DNA of 42,756 nucleotides from Minisyncoccota bacterium (GTDB lineage Bacteria > Patescibacteriota > Minisyncoccia > Phycocordibacterales > EsbW-18): positions 1-42,756 of the forward strand of contig JAPXOG010000002.1 of NCBI GenBank assembly GCA_033811555.1, read 5' to 3'. Position numbers and translations under genes: made by a program. Below the pieces are notes generated by a model. That model worked only from the letters and a program-made list of their open reading frames with translations. It did no database searches and was not told the DNA's origin. Below, in pieces: positions 4,441 through 40,462 of the stretch (positions are counted from its first letter, which is position 1; each line of letters starts with the position of its first letter).

Positions 4441-4484
4441 ATGAGTAATATTATTCTAACAATACATTAGTATAACATCTTCAT

Positions 4485-5123
4485 TTATGTAACTCTTTCT
4501 TTTTTTCGGTAGTACAAATAAAGTCCAACGGCTACAACTACTAAAAGAAAAATGGTGTTTTGCATTGTATCAAGATAAACTGCGTATCGATTGTATACCT
4601 GAGCAAACTCCCACCCAAGAAATCCCATCAGCATAGAGCGAATAATAGTTCCTAAAAAGGTGTACACCGCAAATCTAATAGCTGACCATCGCACAAGCCC
4701 TGCAAAAATATTGAGCGCAATGGATGGTATTAAAGGAAACACGCGGGCAAAAAAGAACAAAACGTCATCCCATACATGACCTCGTAAATAGGTACGCACT
4801 TTTTCAATTTCTTCCCACGAAACACCCGTATATCGTCCATATCGATCCACTAGAGGTTTACCTCCCCAATAAACTAATCCGTATATAATCATCGCACCAA
4901 TTGTAAGCCCAAGTGAAATAGGCAACCCTATATACAAAAATAATTTCCACACTGTACTTAAACCAAGAGCATCATTTTCTAAAAACACAAAACCCGCAGA
5001 AGCCATCACTAACGTTGAAGGTATAGGTGGTATTATTTCCTGTATAAATGAGAGTAGTAAAACACCCCATGGTCCCATCATGGTGAATGTCGCCTGCATA
5101 TAAGAAACCAGCCAAGTAATCAT
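4485..5123 (-). CDS. DedA / VTT-domain membrane protein
   Basis: Multi-TM protein with a VTT-like core 'RVFPLIPSIALNIFAGLVRWSAIRF'. The ATG at 5123 avoids overlap with the secA stop at 5131. Confidence 0.7.
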   Translation of the reverse strand: MITWLVSYMQATFTMMGPWGVLLLSFIQEIIPPIPSTLVMASAGFVFLENDALGLSTVWKLFLYIGLPISLGLTIGAMIIYGLVYWGGKPLVDRYGRYTGVSWEEIEKVRTYLRGHVWDDVLFFFARVFPLIPSIALNIFAGLVRWSAIRFAVYTFLGTIIRSMLMGFLGWEFAQVYNRYAVYLDTMQNTIFLLVVVAVGLYLYYRKKERVT

Positions 5124-5130
5124 GAAAATG

Positions 5131-7668
5131 TTATTTAACGATAGACCATTCACCTCCCTCGATTAAAGGTTCTGCTTTTTTATACTTCATCTGTTTTGTC
5201 TCTATGCCGTTTGTTATTGTAACAATGTCGTTCCTACCTATTTTTGAAGTCAAGCGTACAGTAGGAGTAGCAGAAGATTCTGAAGAGGTATCTCCACCAA
5301 TCATTTGTAATCGTTCGCGCTCACGACGAAGTTTTTCTTCCTCTTTTGCAAACGCCCCCGCTCCTATCTGTGGCAACATTTGTAAAACTGTCGCACGAAT
5401 CGCCCCTTCCATTGCTCGAAATGCACGCATACCTTCTTTTTGATACTCAACTAATGGATCGCGCTGACCATAAGCTCGAAGATTTACACTATTTCTCGCA
5501 TATTCCATAACTTCCAAATGATCTATCCAAAGCATATCCATCGTCTGCAAAATAAGCCGACGCACCGCCTCAAAGAACGCCTCTGAACCAAGCGTTGTTT
5601 CTTTTTCCGCGACCAAAGCTCTAGTTTCATCATTCTCACCTATGATTTCAAAAAGCTTACTACGAACATCTTCAAATGTGCCAAGAACAAGCGCACGACG
5701 ATTCCCGTATACAGATACGCGCTGAGTATTCATCACATCGTCAAACTCAAGCACATGTTTGCGTACATCAAAGTTGAGTCCCTCTATTTTTTTCTGTGCA
5801 CTTTCCAACGAACGATTTATAAGTGAGTTTTCAATCGGTACGTCTTCAGGAATGCCGAATCTCCCCATCATACGTTTCACTGTATCTGAAGCAAACACGC
5901 GCATAAGTGAGTCCTCCAACGATACGAAAAATTGTGTCTCTCCTGGATCACCTTGTCGACCAGACCTTCCACGAAGCTGATCGTCAATACGCCGTGCTTC
6001 ATGCCGTTCTGTTCCAAGAACAAACAGCCCACCAAGTTTTTTTACCTCCTCATATTCTTCTTGAGTTGCCTGCGCACCACCGAGCTTAATATCAACTCCA
6101 CGTCCTGCCATGTTTGTTGCTACAGTTACTGCTCCTTTTTTACCCGCCTGAGCAATAACCTCTCCTTCTTGCTCATGCATCTTTGCGTTAAGTACCGTAT
6201 GAGGAATTCCTTCGCGAGTAAGATGCATGGACAACAACTCGTTTTTTTCAACGGATACCGTTCCGATAAGAACAGGTTGTCCTTGATCATGTGCTTCTCT
6301 GACTCTCTTCGCAATTGCCTCAAACTTCCCTTTCTCTGTTTGATAGATAAGATCGTTACGATCTATTCTGGCCGATGGTCGATGGGTTGGAATAGGTATG
6401 ACTTCAAGCCCATATACTTTGTAAAACTCTTCAGAACTTGTAAGTGCAGTACCTGTCATTCCAGACAATCTTCCGTACATGCGGAAAAAGTTTTGGTATG
6501 TAATTGATGCAAGCGTTCTTGATTCTTCCTGAATACGTACCCCCTCTTTTGCCTCAATCGCCTGGTGTAGACCTTCCGACCAACGACGTCCCGGTTGCAT
6601 TCGTCCTGTAAACTCATCAACTATAACCACCTCATTATCACGCACAATATATTCTTTATCCCTGTGATACAGAGCTTTTGCGCGTACTGCAGTTTCAAGA
6701 TGATGTACATACTTTATCCCTGCATCAGTATAAATATTTTCAACACCAAGCATTTTTTGAGCTTTTTCAATACCAGAATCTGTAAGCAAAACCGCATGTT
6801 TTTTCTCATCAACTTCGTAATCTTCTATTTCTTGAAGCCTCCCAGCAATTTGAGCAAAGGTTTCGTATAATTTCTCTCCCTCTCGAGTTGCAATTGAAAT
6901 GATAAGCGGTGTCCTCGCTTCATCTATTAAAACAGAGTCGATTTCGTCAACAATTGCAAAGTGGTGCCCTCCACGTTCTGGTTCTCTCTGGGAAAGATCT
7001 TCCTTTCTATACACAGTATTATCTCGTAAATAATCAAAACCAAATTCACTGTTTGTCCCGTATGTGATATCCGCTCCATACGCCTCTTTTTTTGTACAGG
7101 GACGGAGAAATTCATACACAACTTTAAACGATCCTACTTGGTCACGCATCGCATCTGATTCAATTTGAGTAGGATCATACAAATACGATTGTTGCTGACT
7201 ATTCACAACACCAACAGACAACCCCAAGAAAGCATACACCTGTCCCATCCATACCGCGTCACGTCGAGCAAGGTAATCGTTCACAGTCACAATGTGCACT
7301 CCTTTTCCTTCAAGAGCATTCAAATATGCTGCAAGTGTTGCTACGAGTGTTTTTCCTTCACCAGTACGCATTTCAGCAATCGCACCTTGATGAAGAATCA
7401 TTCCTCCGATAAGTTGTACGTCATAATGACGCTGGTTCAATGTGCGTTTCGCCGCTTCCCGCACACAAGCAAAAGCTTCAGGAAGAAGTTGATCCAAAGT
7501 TTCTCCTTTTGCTATACGATCTTTAAACTCATCTGTTTTTCCACGAATAGCTTCGTCAGAAAGAGCCTCAATTTCAGCTTCAAGCGCGTTTATTGCTTCA
7601 ACATTAGGCTGAAGACGTGAAAGCGTCCGAGTTACTTCATCCCCAAAAAATCTCTTTAAAAAATCCAT
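5131..7668 (-). CDS. secA: Preprotein translocase ATPase SecA
   Basis: The sequence starts MDFLKRFFGDEVTRTLSRL, a canonical SecA N-terminus, and includes 'MRTGEGKTLVATLAAYLNAL' and the DEAD-like 'IVDEIDSVLIDEARTPLIIS'. The track's extra 93 N-terminal codons read through an upstream terminator and a repeat, so I reject them. Confidence 0.96.
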   Translation of the reverse strand: MDFLKRFFGDEVTRTLSRLQPNVEAINALEAEIEALSDEAIRGKTDEFKDRIAKGETLDQLLPEAFACVREAAKRTLNQRHYDVQLIGGMILHQGAIAEMRTGEGKTLVATLAAYLNALEGKGVHIVTVNDYLARRDAVWMGQVYAFLGLSVGVVNSQQQSYLYDPTQIESDAMRDQVGSFKVVYEFLRPCTKKEAYGADITYGTNSEFGFDYLRDNTVYRKEDLSQREPERGGHHFAIVDEIDSVLIDEARTPLIISIATREGEKLYETFAQIAGRLQEIEDYEVDEKKHAVLLTDSGIEKAQKMLGVENIYTDAGIKYVHHLETAVRAKALYHRDKEYIVRDNEVVIVDEFTGRMQPGRRWSEGLHQAIEAKEGVRIQEESRTLASITYQNFFRMYGRLSGMTGTALTSSEEFYKVYGLEVIPIPTHRPSARIDRNDLIYQTEKGKFEAIAKRVREAHDQGQPVLIGTVSVEKNELLSMHLTREGIPHTVLNAKMHEQEGEVIAQAGKKGAVTVATNMAGRGVDIKLGGAQATQEEYEEVKKLGGLFVLGTERHEARRIDDQLRGRSGRQGDPGETQFFVSLEDSLMRVFASDTVKRMMGRFGIPEDVPIENSLINRSLESAQKKIEGLNFDVRKHVLEFDDVMNTQRVSVYGNRRALVLGTFEDVRSKLFEIIGENDETRALVAEKETTLGSEAFFEAVRRLILQTMDMLWIDHLEVMEYARNSVNLRAYGQRDPLVEYQKEGMRAFRAMEGAIRATVLQMLPQIGAGAFAKEEEKLRRERERLQMIGGDTSSESSATPTVRLTSKIGRNDIVTITNGIETKQMKYKKAEPLIEGGEWSIVK

Positions 7669-7748
7669 AATTTTGTTGACACGGAAGCAATTGTAACACA
7701 CCGTAAAATGATTGGACACAATACTAAAAGAATAAATCACTATAAATG

Positions 7749-7773
7749 AAAAATCCCGCAAAGCGGGATTTTT
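7749..7773 (-). terminator. Intrinsic (bidirectional-looking) terminator between the micro-ORF and secA
   Basis: aaaaATCCCGCaaaGCGGGATtttt: a perfect 7-bp GC stem flanked by an A run and a T run. Confidence 0.7.
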
Positions 7774-7796
7774 CACATGTGGGACAAAGCGATCAC

Positions 7797-7892
7797 TTAT
7801 GCTCGGCGACGCTTTGCCGTCTTCTTTGCAACTTTCTTCTTTGCAACTTTCTTCTTTGCAACTTTCTTCTTTGCAACTTTTTTCTTTGCCAT
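7797..7892 (-). CDS. Candidate 31-aa lysine-rich micro-protein (MAKKKVAKKKVAKKKVAKKKVAKKTAKRRRA)
   Basis: My own translation: ATG at 7892, TAA at 7797-7799, and a terminator beginning about 24 nt after the stop. There is no SD, as for other native genes. All three minus-strand frames are open across the repeat, so the call rests on the start, stop and terminator geometry. Confidence 0.4.
   Translation of the reverse strand: MAKKKVAKKKVAKKKVAKKKVAKKTAKRRRA
7821..7880. repeat. Four perfect tandem copies of a 15-bp unit (cttctttgcaacttt), with degenerate partial copies at both ends
   Basis: Read directly: 7821-7835, 7836-7850, 7851-7865 and 7866-7880 are identical. Confidence 0.92.
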
Positions 7893-8058
7893 ATGTTTGT
7901 CGTGGTACCACGACTAAGTAGTTTTTAAAATCGACCAACACGATCACACAAATGTATGTGTGTATGTTCTACTTAAAATTATCGTGCATAAGTGAATACA
8001 ATACAATGCATTTTCTATAAAAGTGTGGATAACATTTTTCAACTTACAAAAATATTTT

Positions 8059-31351: not shown

Positions 31352-31425
31352 GCGCGTGTAGCTCAGCTGGTTAGAGCACGTCACTGATAATGACGAGGCC
31401 GAAGGTTCAAGTCCTTCCACGCGCA
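31352..31425 (+). tRNA. tRNA-Ile(GAU)
   Basis: Acceptor stem GCGCGUG/CACGCGC, D arm GCUCAGCUGGUUAGAGC, anticodon stem CGUCA/UGACG with loop CUGAUAA, T arm GAAGGUUCAAGUCCUUC. Confidence 0.92.
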
Positions 31426-31563
31426 CATATATTCAAAATTGTTTTTGCCTCCTAATGTTTTATTAGTAGGTTACCTAATATTTTCTACTATACCCTACAC
31501 ATGATTAAATTTCATTTTCAGTTTTGGAAGCGTCTATAGTTACTGCTCATTTTTAACTTTTCC

Positions 31564-31903: not shown

Positions 31904-31932
31904 TTAATCATATTTTTTCTTTTGTTCTGCTC
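31904..31932 (-). repeat. 3' half of the pre-16S processing stem
   Basis: The stretch 31912-31932 (attttttcttttgttctgctc) is the exact reverse complement of 33597-33617. Pairing extends about 7 more bp with one G-T. Confidence 0.7.
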
Positions 31933-32055: not shown

Positions 32056-33570
<1,515 letters not shown>

Positions 33571-33596: not shown

Positions 33597-33625
33597 GAGC
33601 AGAACAAAAGAAAAAATGTGATTAG
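33597..33625 (-). repeat. 5' half of the pre-16S processing stem
   Basis: gagcagaacaaaagaaaaaat (33597-33617) pairs with 31912-31932. Confidence 0.7.
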
Positions 33626-35416: not shown

Positions 35417-37630
35417 ATGAAAATTTCAGATAATTTAGCAGAACATTTTAGACTTAGCGAATTTCAAGGAAAGGCCCTAAAAAAGCTGGGCATAGAAACA
35501 GTAAGAGATTTAATTTACCACTTCCCCATTCGTTATTTATCTTCTTCAAACGAAGAAATTATTGAAACAACTAAATCTGAAAACCTGGTATCTGTTTTAG
35601 GGAATATTACTAAAACCAAAGCTCGTAAAGCTTGGAAAAGTAAAATACCGATGACAGAAGCGACACTTAAAAATGAGGGCGGGAGCTTAAAATTATTATG
35701 GCTACATCAACCTTATATCTCAAAAATGTTCCCAGAAGGAACTCCGGTGATTGTTTCTGGGAAAATACGTGAGAAAAACGGAAAACGTTCTATGGTGAAC
35801 CCAGAAATTGCTCATGCTGACCCACTTAGAAGCTTAACTTCTAAGTTTTTACACTTAGAAGTTAAGCTTCCCCACGAACACAACAAACTATTTGCCGACA
35901 AAAACTCCGAACTACTTATTCCCGTATATTCAGAGAGTCGAGGAATTACTTCGCGCTGGTTTCTGTATGCTATACAAAAACTTCTGTCTCAAGGAATTGT
36001 AGACGACCTTGAAGATCCGATTCCAAAAGATATTCTCAAAAAATATAATCTACCAACACTATCTACAGCGCTTCTTTGGATTCATGCACCAAAAAATGAA
36101 AAAAACGCAATTGCCGCTCGAAAACGCTTTGCTTTTGAAGAAGTATTTTTTATTCAACTTATACGTCAACGTGAACGCGCAGAATCCGATGCACTTCCAT
36201 CATGGGACATTGCTGTTTCAAAAAAAGAACTGAACACTTTCATCAAGCGTTTTCAATTTTCACCTACCTCAGCACAAAAGCGCGCCATTGATGTAATCCT
36301 TAAAGATTTCGCATCTCATCGCGCAATGTCCCGCTTATTAGAAGGAGATGTGGGTTCAGGTAAAACATTTGTTGCTGCTACCACTTCTTTTGCTGTCGTA
36401 ACTACGAGGCCTAAAAATACTGAGGGTAGAAAACAGGATTTTGGCAATCTACAGGTCGCATACATGGCTCCTACAGAAATACTTGCAACCCAGCACTTTG
36501 AATCATTTATAGAGTTTTTCCGAGGGCTTCCTATTCAAATTGGACTAATAACAGGATCAGGATGTAGGAAATTCCCATCTAAAGTAGACCCTGAAGGATG
36601 GACTGATATATCCCGAGCACAACTTTTAAAGTGGGTTGCAAATGGAGAAATCCCTATTGTAATCGGCACGCATGCTCTAATTCAAAAATCAGTAAAATTT
36701 AAGCATCTCGCATATGTAGTAATTGACGAACAACATCGTTTTGGAACACGACAACGCGCCGAGCTTGCTCGAAAAACCGATGTGCCAGACGAAAGTCCTT
36801 GGCGCATGCCTCACCTTCTTTCAATGACAGCCACTCCTATCCCCCGTACACTTGCACTTACTGTATATGGCGATCTTGATCTTACACTGTTGGATGAGAT
36901 GCCCTCAGGTCGTAAAGAAATTAAAACAGAAATTGTCCCTCCTTCAGAACGTACTCGCGTTTACAAACACGTACGAGAACTAGTATCACAAGGAAGACAA
37001 GCGTATGTAATTTGTCCAAAAATAGATGAAGGCGGAGGAAAATTGGAAGTAAAAAATGTCACTGAAGAAGCCGCGCGCCTTAAAAAAGAAGTGTTCCCAG
37101 ATCTGCGTATTGAAACTCTACATGGAAAAATGAAACCAAATTCAAAGGATGCAATAATGGAGAGATTCTCGCAAGGGGAAATAGATGTGCTTGTAGCAAC
37201 TTCTGTCGTTGAGGTAGGAGTAAACGTTCCTAATGCAACAGTTATTATAATTGAAGGAGCGGAACGATTTGGTCTGGCACAACTACATCAACTACGAGGA
37301 CGTGTTTTGCGCTCTACTCATCAATCTTATTGCTACTTATTTACAGACGCACGAGGTATTTCCACTATTGAGCGCCTCTCAACGCTTACAAAAACAACAA
37401 ACGGATTTGAGCTGGCAGAAAAAGATTTGGAACTACGAGGATCAGGAGAGCTGTATGGAAAACGACAATGGGGGCTCTCAGATGTTGCGATGGAAGCACT
37501 CAAAAATATCAAAATGGTTGAAGCCGCACGCGATGAAGCACACGCTCTTATCACACGCGATCCAGAACTAAAAAGCGCACCACTCCTTGATAAAGCGGTG
37601 CGCGAACGTGAATCAATTCATTTTGAGTAG
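35417..37630 (+). CDS. recG: ATP-dependent DNA helicase RecG
   Basis: The wedge domain is followed by 'LLEGDVGSGKTFVA', 'VVIDEQHRFG', 'LSMTATPIPRTLA' and 'QLHQLRGRVLRS'. The ATG at 35417 is preferred over the TTG at 35399. Confidence 0.93.
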   Translation: MKISDNLAEHFRLSEFQGKALKKLGIETVRDLIYHFPIRYLSSSNEEIIETTKSENLVSVLGNITKTKARKAWKSKIPMTEATLKNEGGSLKLLWLHQPYISKMFPEGTPVIVSGKIREKNGKRSMVNPEIAHADPLRSLTSKFLHLEVKLPHEHNKLFADKNSELLIPVYSESRGITSRWFLYAIQKLLSQGIVDDLEDPIPKDILKKYNLPTLSTALLWIHAPKNEKNAIAARKRFAFEEVFFIQLIRQRERAESDALPSWDIAVSKKELNTFIKRFQFSPTSAQKRAIDVILKDFASHRAMSRLLEGDVGSGKTFVAATTSFAVVTTRPKNTEGRKQDFGNLQVAYMAPTEILATQHFESFIEFFRGLPIQIGLITGSGCRKFPSKVDPEGWTDISRAQLLKWVANGEIPIVIGTHALIQKSVKFKHLAYVVIDEQHRFGTRQRAELARKTDVPDESPWRMPHLLSMTATPIPRTLALTVYGDLDLTLLDEMPSGRKEIKTEIVPPSERTRVYKHVRELVSQGRQAYVICPKIDEGGGKLEVKNVTEEAARLKKEVFPDLRIETLHGKMKPNSKDAIMERFSQGEIDVLVATSVVEVGVNVPNATVIIIEGAERFGLAQLHQLRGRVLRSTHQSYCYLFTDARGISTIERLSTLTKTTNGFELAEKDLELRGSGELYGKRQWGLSDVAMEALKNIKMVEAARDEAHALITRDPELKSAPLLDKAVRERESIHFE
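35826..35870 (+). repeat. Palindromic element copy 1, inside recG and in frame
   Basis: gaagcttaacttctaag (35829-35845), then an 8-nt loop tttttaca, then cttagaagttaagcttc (35854-35870). This is a perfect 17-bp inverted repeat. It shares an exact 21-mer, cttagaagcttaacttctaag, with 40290-40310. Confidence 0.88.
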
Positions 37631-39710: not shown

Positions 39711-39739
39711 CTCGGCAGTTATGGTAACTGCTGAGTTTT
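39711..39739 (+). promoter_or_regulatory. 5' leader hairpin plus U4 immediately upstream of the SD of the 161-aa ORF
   Basis: CTCGGCAGTTA-tgg-TAACTGCTGAG (11 bp, one G-U), then TTTT, then AAGAAGGAGGG, then ATG at 39754. Confidence 0.4.
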
Positions 39740-39753
39740 AAGAAGGAGGGATT

Positions 39754-40239
39754 ATGAGTAGTAGGAATGGAACTTTAGCGTTAAGTATTTTCTCGGCGAT
39801 CGTAGCCGGGAAAGCTATTCAGTGCGAGAAGTGTGGTCTTGCCCGGACTTCTCCCGAGTTCCAGGATGCGCTGTGGCGCCTAATGGCGCGTATGGGACTC
39901 GTCACCGAAAGGATTGACGAGTTCTTAATGGCCATCCTGGAGCCATGCGTGGCGGAGCGCGAGCGCCAGCTTGCGCTAATCCCGCAGGAGGAGCAGGAGC
40001 ACTACTCCATCCAGGTCCTCTGCGCTCGGATTCGCCATCGAACCGAGCGCGACAAGCTCACCATAGGTGAGCTGGAGGACATTTTCGTTGGGGATGTTCG
40101 CGGAAGTGGCATCCCCGAGGAAACGATCCGAGCCTTTGTACGACGACTCTGCAACGTCGTCGTACGACAGGACTCGGATGCTCGCCGGCTTCTTCGGCAA
40201 GCGCGCAAGAAGGCTTCGGCCTTCTCGTTCCCCTGCTGA
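39754..40239 (+). CDS. Hypothetical protein, 161 aa, strongly G+C-rich
   Basis: AAGGAGGG lies 3 nt upstream of the ATG. Codons are G/C-ending, a GC hairpin follows the stop, and no family is recognised. Confidence 0.6.
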   Translation: MSSRNGTLALSIFSAIVAGKAIQCEKCGLARTSPEFQDALWRLMARMGLVTERIDEFLMAILEPCVAERERQLALIPQEEQEHYSIQVLCARIRHRTERDKLTIGELEDIFVGDVRGSGIPEETIRAFVRRLCNVVVRQDSDARRLLRQARKKASAFSFPC

Positions 40240-40245
40240 CAACAT

Positions 40246-40270
40246 AGCCGCGCCTCCTGGAGGCGCGGCT
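40246..40270 (+). terminator. GC-rich hairpin after the 161-aa ORF (no clear U-tract)
   Basis: AGCCGCGCCT-ccugg-AGGCGCGGCT, starting 7 nt after the TGA. Confidence 0.4.
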
Positions 40271-40290
40271 AAAACTTATCTCTGAAATCC

Positions 40291-40326
40291 TTAGAAGCTT
40301 AACTTCTAAGGAAGTTAAGCTTCTAA
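40291..40326 (+). repeat. Palindromic element copy 2 (intergenic)
   Basis: TTAGAAGCTTAACTTC-taag-GAAGTTAAGCTTCTAA: a perfect 16-bp inverted repeat with the same core as the recG copy. Confidence 0.9.
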
Positions 40327-40387: not shown

Positions 40388-40462
40388 GCGCGTGTAGCTC
40401 AACGGTAGAGCAGCCGTCTTATACACGGCCGGTTCTAGGTTCGAATCCTAGCACGCGCACCA
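40388..40462 (+). tRNA. tRNA-Ile(UAU), CCA encoded
   Basis: The acceptor stem GCGCGUG/CACGCGC and discriminator A are identical to those of tRNA-Ile(GAU). The anticodon stem is GCCGU/ACGGC with loop CUUAUAC, giving anticodon UAU. The T arm is CUAGGUUCGAAUCCUAG, followed by the 3' CCA. Confidence 0.85.

Follow-up and report, generated by a model that had tools for sequence, protein, structure and literature searches.

The window studied here is a 42,756-nt (42.7-kb) stretch of contig JAPXOG010000002.1 (assembly GCA_033811555.1) from a Minisyncoccota bacterium, and it carries a perfect DNA hairpin inside its recG gene. Very probably this hairpin is an inverted doublet of the REPIN type, that is, a pair of repetitive extragenic palindromic (REP) units forming a hairpin, which belongs to a system of the candidate phyla radiation (CPR) similar to that of REPs and REP-associated tyrosine transposases (RAYTs), and which lies in frame where RecG has a tolerant loop. 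The family as a whole is best explained as a CPR member of the known REP/REPIN-RAYT kind, with behaviour like that of the Rickettsia palindromic elements (RPEs). A preliminary description, made from the letters of the window, had compared the hairpin with RPEs. Its interpretation is supported and sharpened by our analysis: the in-frame colonisation of coding sequence stands, and the classification gives way to a REP doublet or REPIN linked to a RAYT-like transposase, the element being 3-4 times shorter than an RPE.

Read directly from the sequence, the recG hairpin has perfect arms of 18 bp around a loop of 6 nt, 42 nt in total. The length and the perfection had been given correctly before; the arms of 17 bp and loop of 8 nt had not, because one extra A-T pair closes the stem. 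It is the longest perfect hairpin of the window, and first-order Markov simulations of the window (30 runs) reached perfect stems of 12 bp at most. Folded as RNA it gives -25.9 kcal/mol (z = -8.6 against shuffles). The element is composed of two inverted near-palindromic units of about 21 nt (CTTAGAAG-N5-CTTCTAAG) with a short spacer, and the doublet can fold into a single long hairpin or, alternatively, into a pair of small ones (Table 1). There is one stop-free frame per strand. The element lies in frame within recG as had been claimed: the gene stays open and reads ...PLRSLTSKFLHLEVKLPHEH... across it (also given as ...HADPLRSLTSKFLHLEVKLPHEHNKLF...), and the peptide, if translated, would include SLTSKFLHLEVK.

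The pentamer CCCAC is found as a direct repeat at both borders of the element. As a target-site duplication it was rejected, because it would mean a 50-nt, out-of-frame insertion; CCCAC is therefore read as a tag or target, and the insert as 45 nt. By frame arithmetic, excision of 35826-35870 (45 nt, 15 codons) should leave an open, in-frame ...HADPPHEHNKLF... sequence. No convincing target-site duplication was found.

The exact 21-mer CTTAGAAGCTTAACTTCTAAG occurs at 35825-35845 and 40290-40310, and these are the only two matches in the whole window even with three mismatches (0.26 expected by chance), so the earlier statement that its recurrence exceeds chance holds. The second place is intergenic, as had been noticed, between a 161-aa open reading frame (ORF) and a tRNA-Ile(UAU) gene, and there the 21-mer is itself part of a hairpin with 16-bp arms (40291-40306 and 40311-40326) and the loop TAAG. 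This copy is flagged as terminator-like on the + strand, with the tail TATTTTAAAC; the recG copy is unflagged, with the tail CCCACGAACA and no T-run. No Rfam family was matched at the gathering score; what came up at E<=10 were sub-threshold matches of a generic hairpin or miRNA-like kind.

Table 1. Coordinates of the recG element, its intergenic counterpart and the neighbouring genes in the window.
Feature	Position	Strand	Remarks
Long hairpin (REPIN-like doublet)	35829..35870	+	arms 35829-35846 GAAGCTTAACTTCTAAGT and 35853-35870 ACTTAGAAGTTAAGCTTC, loop TTTTAC
REP-like unit 1, CTTAGAAG-CTTAA-CTTCTAAG	35825..35845	+	near-palindrome by itself, 8-bp stem; identical to 40290-40310
Unit 2, inverted, (A)CTTAGAAG-TTAAG-CTTC	35853..35870	+	outer TAAG of the full unit missing
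CCCAC directly 5' of the recG element	35821..35825	+	candidate tag or target motif; 1-base overlap with unit 1
Second CCCAC	35871..35875	+	direct repeat of 35821-35825; 3' border of the recG element
Element-encoded peptide RSLTSKFLHLEVKLP, R138-P152	35828..35872	+	sole stop-free frame on the + strand
recG, host of the insert	35417..37630	+	737 aa from ATG; upstream TTG 35399 possible as start
Intergenic doublet CTTAGAAGCTTAACTTC TAAG GAAGTTAAGCTTCTAA, then TATTTTAAA	40290..40326	+	16-bp arms
161-aa ORF	39754..40239	+	upstream neighbour of the intergenic doublet; strong Shine-Dalgarno, no Pfam match
tRNA-Ile(UAU)	40388..40462	+	downstream neighbour of the intergenic doublet

Both regions, around the recG copy and around the intergenic copy, are base-for-base identical in six assemblies from six different samples (L001-L006; L-numbers denote loci or contigs and P-numbers proteins compared in this analysis). 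This identity excludes an assembly artefact, and a chimera from assembly or multiple displacement amplification was dropped for the same reason. A CRISPR repeat was also dropped, as the two copies lie 4.4 kb apart and form no regularly spaced array. Excision of the element at the RNA level was dropped because the frame is open and bacteria are not known to have a religation route for it.

The RecG product was called, 100% identical, on 16 contigs and has the Pfam domains RecG_wedge, DEAD, Helicase_C and RecG_dom3_C. Its closest named relatives are from Candidatus Campbellbacteria (67-71% identity), by which the organism is judged to be a CPR bacterium of the Campbellbacteria type, in agreement with the CPR-type genome supposed before. 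Aligned with T. maritima RecG (1GM5), the match resumes at LLIPVY, which corresponds to residue 253 of the 1GM5 chain. Among 108 aligned RecG orthologues, 60 of which were checked column by column, extra residues at the element site are present in only two, the window's own protein (P0001) and P0002 (GCA_024653945.1); the earlier impression of an unusually long wedge-domain stretch was thus right. The insert of P0002 is encoded by a different perfect palindrome of 44 nt, TTTGGAAGCCTGGCTTCCAA CGCG TTGGAAGCCAGGCTTCCAAA, which differs from that of the window in 6 of 18 stem pairs, all six compensated, so that neither carrier has the extra residues without palindromic DNA. The insert is lacking in P0005 and P0007, with which P0002 shares 93% and 90% identity, and the window RecG is the outgroup at 72%. 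Such lineage-specific presence suggests either two doublet gains at the same linker or one gain with at least two precise losses.

The AlphaFold2 model of RecG has a mean predicted local distance difference test (pLDDT) score of 83.8, and residues 136-164, between the strands 130-133 and 167-170, are below 50. In this model the insert is located in a hypervariable, low-confidence loop between two strands of the wedge domain. Six other RecG relatives (P0008, P0017, P0024, P0030, P0055 and P0070) have 880-922 aa and an additional PF13366 domain, and for one of them the source record gives the name 'GxxExxY protein'. Theirs is a distinct insertion, much larger than that of the recG hairpin.

A palindrome could also be made locally in recG by a template-switch or fold-back replication error that inverts neighbouring coding sequence, with no mobile element involved. 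The empty sites of relatives do hold GGAAGY (TTAGGAAGTCCG, GCAGGAAGCCCG), which looks like the start of an arm, and the linker is prone to indels. We nevertheless give this origin hardly any credence, because the same sequence of 21 to 37 nt is found at unrelated loci, and the same core in dozens of genomes and beside transposase genes.

The extent of the family was determined with the hairpin pattern GAAGCYTRRCTTC-N(0-30)-GAAGYYARGCTTC, which covers both recG variants, in 185,579 species-representative genomes. There were 65 copies at 63 places, against a chance estimate of about 0.5, and metagenomes gave 12 further places, L073 among them; the core is thus found well beyond the two copies of the window. 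About 39 of the 63 places are labelled Patescibacteria (Parcubacteria, Saccharibacteria, Moranii-, Nealson-, Falkow- and Paceibacterota). Up to 16 copies occur per genome (JBBTTI01), with 7 in CAYIJU01, 6 in JAGLYP01 and 3 in JAUXSN01, and the loops and flanks are genome-specific. The hairpins have the common core GAAGC-N4-CTTC; the dominant one, GAAGCT-W-AGCTTC, is a 13-nt palindrome in itself. The same loci hold perfect hairpins of like build with compensated cores (GGAGC..GCTCC, GAGGC..GCCTC, AACAC..GTGTT).

CCCAC precedes the L073 doublet, CCCAC...GTGGG surrounds the L089 doublets that flank the RAYT-like gene, and CCCA...TGGG those of L020 and L027; in other CPR subfamilies the flanks are AAAA/TAAG or TTTG/CAAA. 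In the subfamily of JBBTTI01 and CAYIJU01 the intergenic copies stand 0-14 nt past the 3' end of a gene with a T-run downstream, and some provide the stop codon. The pattern had 0 matches in the viral contigs of IMG/VR, and nothing thus points to a phage as vector.

Some places with the core as a repeated element have labels other than CPR. They include an Alloprevotella metagenome-assembled genome (MAG), JAFUZP01 (L026, L032, L035), the copies of which have a common conserved tail, GCGAGGAAGTT, and 'Gammaproteobacteria' MAGs (L020, L027, L030, L071). L020 and L071 hold a RAYT-like gene of CPR type, which implies either mislabelled genomes or a system that reaches beyond CPR. In a Paceibacterota MAG (L045, 4461-5730), the 241-codon frame of a hypothetical protein has three consecutive palindromic units, coding for EAWLPIGSQAS, KEVKLPIGSLTS and ATLPIGSVASS, with a fourth palindrome about 1.1 kb upstream (4461-4498), which looks like an element cluster within a gene.

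About 13 of the 65 copies are in the middle of ORFs and the remainder are intergenic or at ORF ends. Nearly all mid-ORF copies read (G/R)SL(A/T)S-x-(L)E(A/V)KL(P/L). The leucyl-tRNA synthetase (LeuRS) of L011 has about 11 extra residues compared with 2V0C, the Tgt of L058 has 24 residues in place of 3 in a solved Tgt, and in the DprA of L015 and L065 the element is just beyond the end of the match to a solved DprA. Other intragenic hosts are a MurD-like ligase, glycosyltransferases and DUF4015, and the C-terminal ends of the genes for cysteinyl- and prolyl-tRNA synthetases run into a family copy. The arm offset is 2 mod 3, with the SLAS and EAKL frames in phase, in 10 of 13 mid-ORF copies, which is the expected remainder after purifying selection on random insertions. 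On JAUXSN010000055, a 58-kb Moraniibacteriota contig (L011, L036, L058), all three copies are intragenic and in frame, in LeuRS, a 758-aa protein and Tgt, and no intergenic copy was found there.

The stems change while keeping their structure. Among 120 DprA relatives some have RSLASKKEAKL and others RNLVSKKETKF. The latter was predicted to be a compensated G:C to A:T variant, and the DNA of P0185 (L088, same dprA site) confirmed this: AGAAACTTAGTTTCT AAGAAAGA AGAAACTAAGTTTCT. In eight elements reached without any hairpin search, 97.5% of the cells pair and changes on both sides are present at 10 of 15 pairs; none of 500 shuffles match this, and slid controls stay at or below 62%. With so small a set, and with arms trimmed by hand, the covariation is supportive, not decisive.

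These observations could mean that the hairpin is retained in recG, dprA, tgt and leuS for the benefit of the host, as an mRNA or DNA structure regulating expression or as a useful surface peptide. In dprA, synonymous sites are much better conserved inside the element than outside it: between L015 and L065, the proteins of which are 70% identical, third-codon identity is 92% in the element block and 48% gene-wide. A perfect palindrome is at the same linker in two RecG lineages, the variants are always fully compensated, and the hosts tend to be genes for DNA and RNA transactions, a bias also noted for intragenic REPs of other genomes (PMC3733652). However, 106 of the 108 close RecG orthologues lack the insert, the loop that holds it is hypervariable and of low confidence, no T-tail follows the recG copy, and decayed versions exist among DprA orthologues (e.g. 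L087, P0131). Recent insertion, or conversion from other copies, would explain perfect arms and genome-specific variants equally well. So a host function is quite unlikely in our judgement.

A link between the units and a transposase was found through the dprA neighbour in L088, the product of which passes the Pfam model Y1_Tnp with 33.5 bits (cut-off 23). The sole NCBIfam match of this protein is the RAYT model, with a score far under the cut-off of that model. The family has 2,924 relatives, with CPR bacteria as the top named matches, and the conserved motifs YH(V/I)YNRG, NH(F/Y)HLI (the HUH motif) and Y.NGN.EIH. With NCBIfam, REP_Tyr_transpos was the sole match with E<0.01 for five of six Y1 proteins, and P0304 had no match. 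A tblastn search with one IS200 TnpA sequence as query gave no match.

The units are physically linked to these genes. In L089 the Y1 gene stands between two doublets, CCCAC-GGAGCTTAGCTCC-N-GGAGCTAAGCTCC-GTGGG, and two more copies are close by. In L091/92, L093 and L088, units of the form AAAGGAGCT-W-AGCTCCTTT are at the 5' end of the Y1 gene and about 177 nt inside; L091/92 and L093 have an additional unit at the 3' end, and L088 stops before the 3' end of its gene. The Y1 gene of L090 is flanked on both sides by a different small hairpin. Y1 genes are also present in loci fetched by the hairpin pattern alone (L020, L062, L071, L015, L025, L040, L042, L057 and L065), with the doublet 30 nt upstream of the Y1 start in L020 and 16 nt past the Y1 stop in L062 and L071.

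The unit of the window itself is found three times around the Y1 gene of L073: as a doublet at 5090-5131, as a single unit that stands 3 nt upstream of the ATG, and as an internal unit coding for LRSLTSK. Positions 5094-5130 are identical in 37 of 37 nt to the intergenic element of the window, in the opposite orientation. L073 and the window have GC contents of 0.406 and 0.404 and a tetranucleotide correlation of 0.90 (0.86-0.93 among pieces of the window), and the sample series that yielded L006 also yielded L073. This contig is therefore probably the REPtron of this organism, a Y1/HUH gene flanked by its own units.

Two observations concern the position of units relative to RAYT-like genes. 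Four of these genes contain the unit of their own genome in frame about 177 nt past the start (L073 5366-5386, L088 6600-6618, L091 10177-10195, L093 6659-6677), and this internal unit may be a built-in self-recognition or regulatory site. Moreover, dprA adjoins a RAYT-like gene in two genomes and is at most 2.5 kb away in a third (L015 1676-2395, L065 5471-6199, L088 6430-6888), and all three dprA genes have an intragenic doublet.

The Y1 gene with its flanking hairpins might be an ordinary autonomous insertion sequence (IS) of the IS200/IS605 type, with the doublets as derivatives like miniature inverted-repeat transposable elements (palindrome-associated transposable elements), and not a RAYT, domesticated and single-copy, together with REPINs. 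Pfam assigns the proteins to Y1_Tnp, 'Transposase IS200 like', JBBTTI01 has at least four or five diverged Y1 copies that differ in the hairpin beside them (L025, L040 twice, L042, L065), and many Y1 homologues are on contigs of 1-5 kb, which is typical of repeated genes. But the NCBIfam IS200/IS605 models gave 0 matches and, as said, the RAYT model alone reached E<0.01 for five of six proteins. The flanking doublets are symmetric and identical to nearby gene-less copies (L089), unlike the distinct left and right ends of an IS. We consider an ordinary IS to be an improbable reading; for the recG insert itself it predicts the same outcome as the REPIN reading.

The units might also be DNA-uptake signal sequences as in Neisseria, where DNA uptake sequences (DUS) often form inverted pairs and stereotyped hairpins with a T-run after gene ends; such pairs also act as terminators and are over-represented in genes for genome maintenance. 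Competence genes are retained in CPR bacteria, dprA itself has an element, and inverted pairs are located past gene ends. On the other side, the 13-mer practically never occurs singly in JBBTTI01 and CAYIJU01, the density here is about 1 per 20 kb, known uptake sequences having roughly 1 per kb, and the units are tied to Y1 transposase genes. An uptake signal is thus scarcely to be expected.

Several points weigh against a REPIN-type doublet moved by a RAYT-like enzyme. The Y1 proteins score 21-24 bits (E 3e-5 to 3e-4) against a cut-off of 80 for the RAYT model NF047646, and their relation to characterised RAYTs is distant at best. The window of 42.7 kb has no transposase gene, and its link with L073 is by the identical 37-mer, the composition and the sample series, not by assembly. 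Two copies in the window mean a density far under classic REP levels. The canonical GTAG or CGTC tag is absent from the recG copy, the flanks of which are CCCAC. A comparison of recG sites with and without the insert shows no clean insertion but a replacement (31 nt to 64 nt for P0002), and in so diverged a linker the exact borders of the element are unreadable. Finally, there is no presence/absence polymorphism between JBBTTI01 and CAYIJU01, which are about 95-97% identical and share the elements in all common regions.

Considering these points together with the anatomy, the repetition and the linkage with Y1 genes, we take the following mechanism for the REPIN-like doublet to be the most likely. 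It would be a non-autonomous mobile element, recognised as a hairpin in single-stranded DNA; a RAYT-like tyrosine transposase of the Y1/HUH class, with its gene at another place in the genome, would move it by cut and paste or by copying. Such transposition would produce no target-site duplication. In recG, a 45-nt copy would have entered the hypervariable linker with which the wedge domain ends. As each arm has one stop-free frame and the arm spacing keeps both frames in phase, recG would stay open, and a disordered loop of the protein would become longer by 15 residues. Selection would purge copies that landed out of frame or where they do harm, and for this reason the surviving intragenic copies would read (G/R)SL(A/T)S...E(A/V)KL(P/L). 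The intergenic copy is at the usual site of the family, just past a gene end, and may serve as a terminator or RNA-stabilising hairpin.

It is possible, but in our view unlikely, that REPIN-RAYT-like systems are an active, CPR-wide feature and not mere passengers. This idea comes from units at the same position in genes of DNA transactions (dprA, and recG, where the different variants may go back to at least two gains), from the synonymous-site conservation, the dprA element being retained across orthologues about 70% identical in protein, and from the units inside the transposase gene. If it is true, insertion might be targeted, or hairpins might be co-opted as regulatory or recombination signals, through which genes for repair and competence might be connected with the transposase.

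Other features of the window were observed near these elements. The 161-aa ORF before the intergenic doublet is contained in a GC-rich island (39730-40285, +) with 54-60% GC against a background of about 40%. The island folds as RNA at -292.6 kcal/mol (shuffles -208.9 +/- 6.3, z = -13.2) and has no Rfam match at E<=10, and the ORF was not seen in the recG surroundings of four relatives (L007, L008, L085, L086). The tRNA-Ile after the doublet has the anticodon UAU, an uncommon bacterial way of reading AUA; a second tRNA-Ile (GAU) is at 31352-31426. A full-length 16S rRNA gene (32056-33570, -) is bracketed by 28-nt arms (31905-31932 and 33597-33624) that are 96% complementary, like a processing stem, and there is no 23S gene anywhere in the window, so that the rRNA gene is unlinked. 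In secA (5131-7947, -), four to five tandem 15-nt repeats at 7816-7894 encode an N-terminal extension (SCKEE)n, after which the SecA_DEAD domain begins at residue 97.

CPR bacteria or Patescibacteria are usually called minimal and streamlined. A family of hairpin repeats over several CPR classes, linked to a tyrosine transposase of its own, means that intragenomic mobile DNA is still carried and tolerated, with repeats written into essential genes (recG, dprA, leuS, tgt, murD-like ligase, glycosyltransferases). It would extend REP/REPIN-RAYT biology, so far mainly known from Proteobacteria, to a very distant lineage, and it explains a recurrent insert of 12-15 residues, (G/R)SLAS..EAKL(P/L), which is otherwise puzzling to annotators and structure predictors. 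The elements could be used as markers for strain typing and for assembly breaks in MAGs, and the genome-specific compensated variants are a clean system for the co-evolution of transposase and hairpin. The preliminary description knew of no such elements in CPR genomes, and our search, which did not extend to subscription journals, found no literature linking REP, REPIN, RAYT or palindromic elements with CPR.

Among known systems, REPs are the nearest. They are palindromes of 20-40 bp, often in pairs of opposite orientation that fold into larger structures (PMC3733652, Di Nocera et al.), and a REPIN is an inverted REP doublet with a spacer, thought to be moved by RAYTs (PMC3337134, PMC3116915). 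The CPR family resembles the REPs and REPINs of E. coli and Pseudomonas in its short palindromic units, inverted doublets with a longer hairpin, genome-specific subfamilies and compensated stem changes. REPs lie 20 bp or less from ORF 3' ends and can supply stop codons (PMC3733652), and the CPR copies likewise stand about 20 nt or less from ORF 3' ends, sometimes with the stop codon supplied. In some species intragenic REPs are found in genes for DNA synthesis and repair, tRNA synthetases and tRNA-modification enzymes (PMC3733652), which is matched here by occasional in-frame copies in repair, aminoacyl-tRNA synthetase and tRNA-modification genes. Different REPs stand at the same recB site in two Xanthomonas species (PMC3733652), as different variants do here at one site of recG. 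Over-represented 16-mers in the flanks are a hallmark of RAYT genes (PMC5581495), and like a REPtron the CPR Y1/HUH gene is flanked by its own units (L089, L091/92, L093, L088, L020, L062, L071, L073).

There are also differences from REP-RAYT systems. REPs have an unpaired terminal tag, GTAG or CGTC, with a GTGG variant reported only for O. terrae (PMC3733652); the CPR units have no GTAG or CGTC tag, and some subfamilies have CCCAC/GTGGG. They are more A+T-rich and each is nearly self-complementary. Their transposases are only remotely related to curated RAYTs (21-24 bits against 80), and in four CPR genomes the transposase gene itself contains a unit. The counts seen are low, 2 per 43 kb here and 16 exact-pattern copies in the richest MAG; REP systems have tens to hundreds of copies per genome. 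The host is a CPR genome of about the 1-Mb class.

IS200/IS605 elements and their palindrome-associated derivatives (PMC6006769) share with this family a Y1/HUH enzyme, subterminal single-strand hairpins and an expected lack of target duplication, in line with which none is evident in recG once CCCAC is taken as target or tag. They differ in that the CPR flanking doublets are symmetric and common to many gene-less copies, and that no IS200 model of NCBIfam is matched. SPRITE of S. pneumoniae (PMC10969869) and the inverted DUS of Neisseria are similar as stereotyped T-run hairpins past gene ends, reused at many genes; unlike them, the recG copy lacks a T-run, the CPR units are associated with a Y1 transposase and there is no high-density distribution of a single site. 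Finally, RPEs are elements of about 150 bp that are specific to Rickettsia (PMC10969869), and the recG insert is like them an in-frame palindromic insert of a family found in unrelated housekeeping genes of a reduced genome, absent from orthologues, with an added peptide compatible with the fold. It is set apart by size and host, being only 42-45 nt (3-4 times shorter) and in a CPR bacterium, with a candidate transposase. As RPE-4 and RPE-6 were equated with CGTC-type REPs by Di Nocera et al. (PMC3733652), the comparisons with RPEs and with REPs converge.

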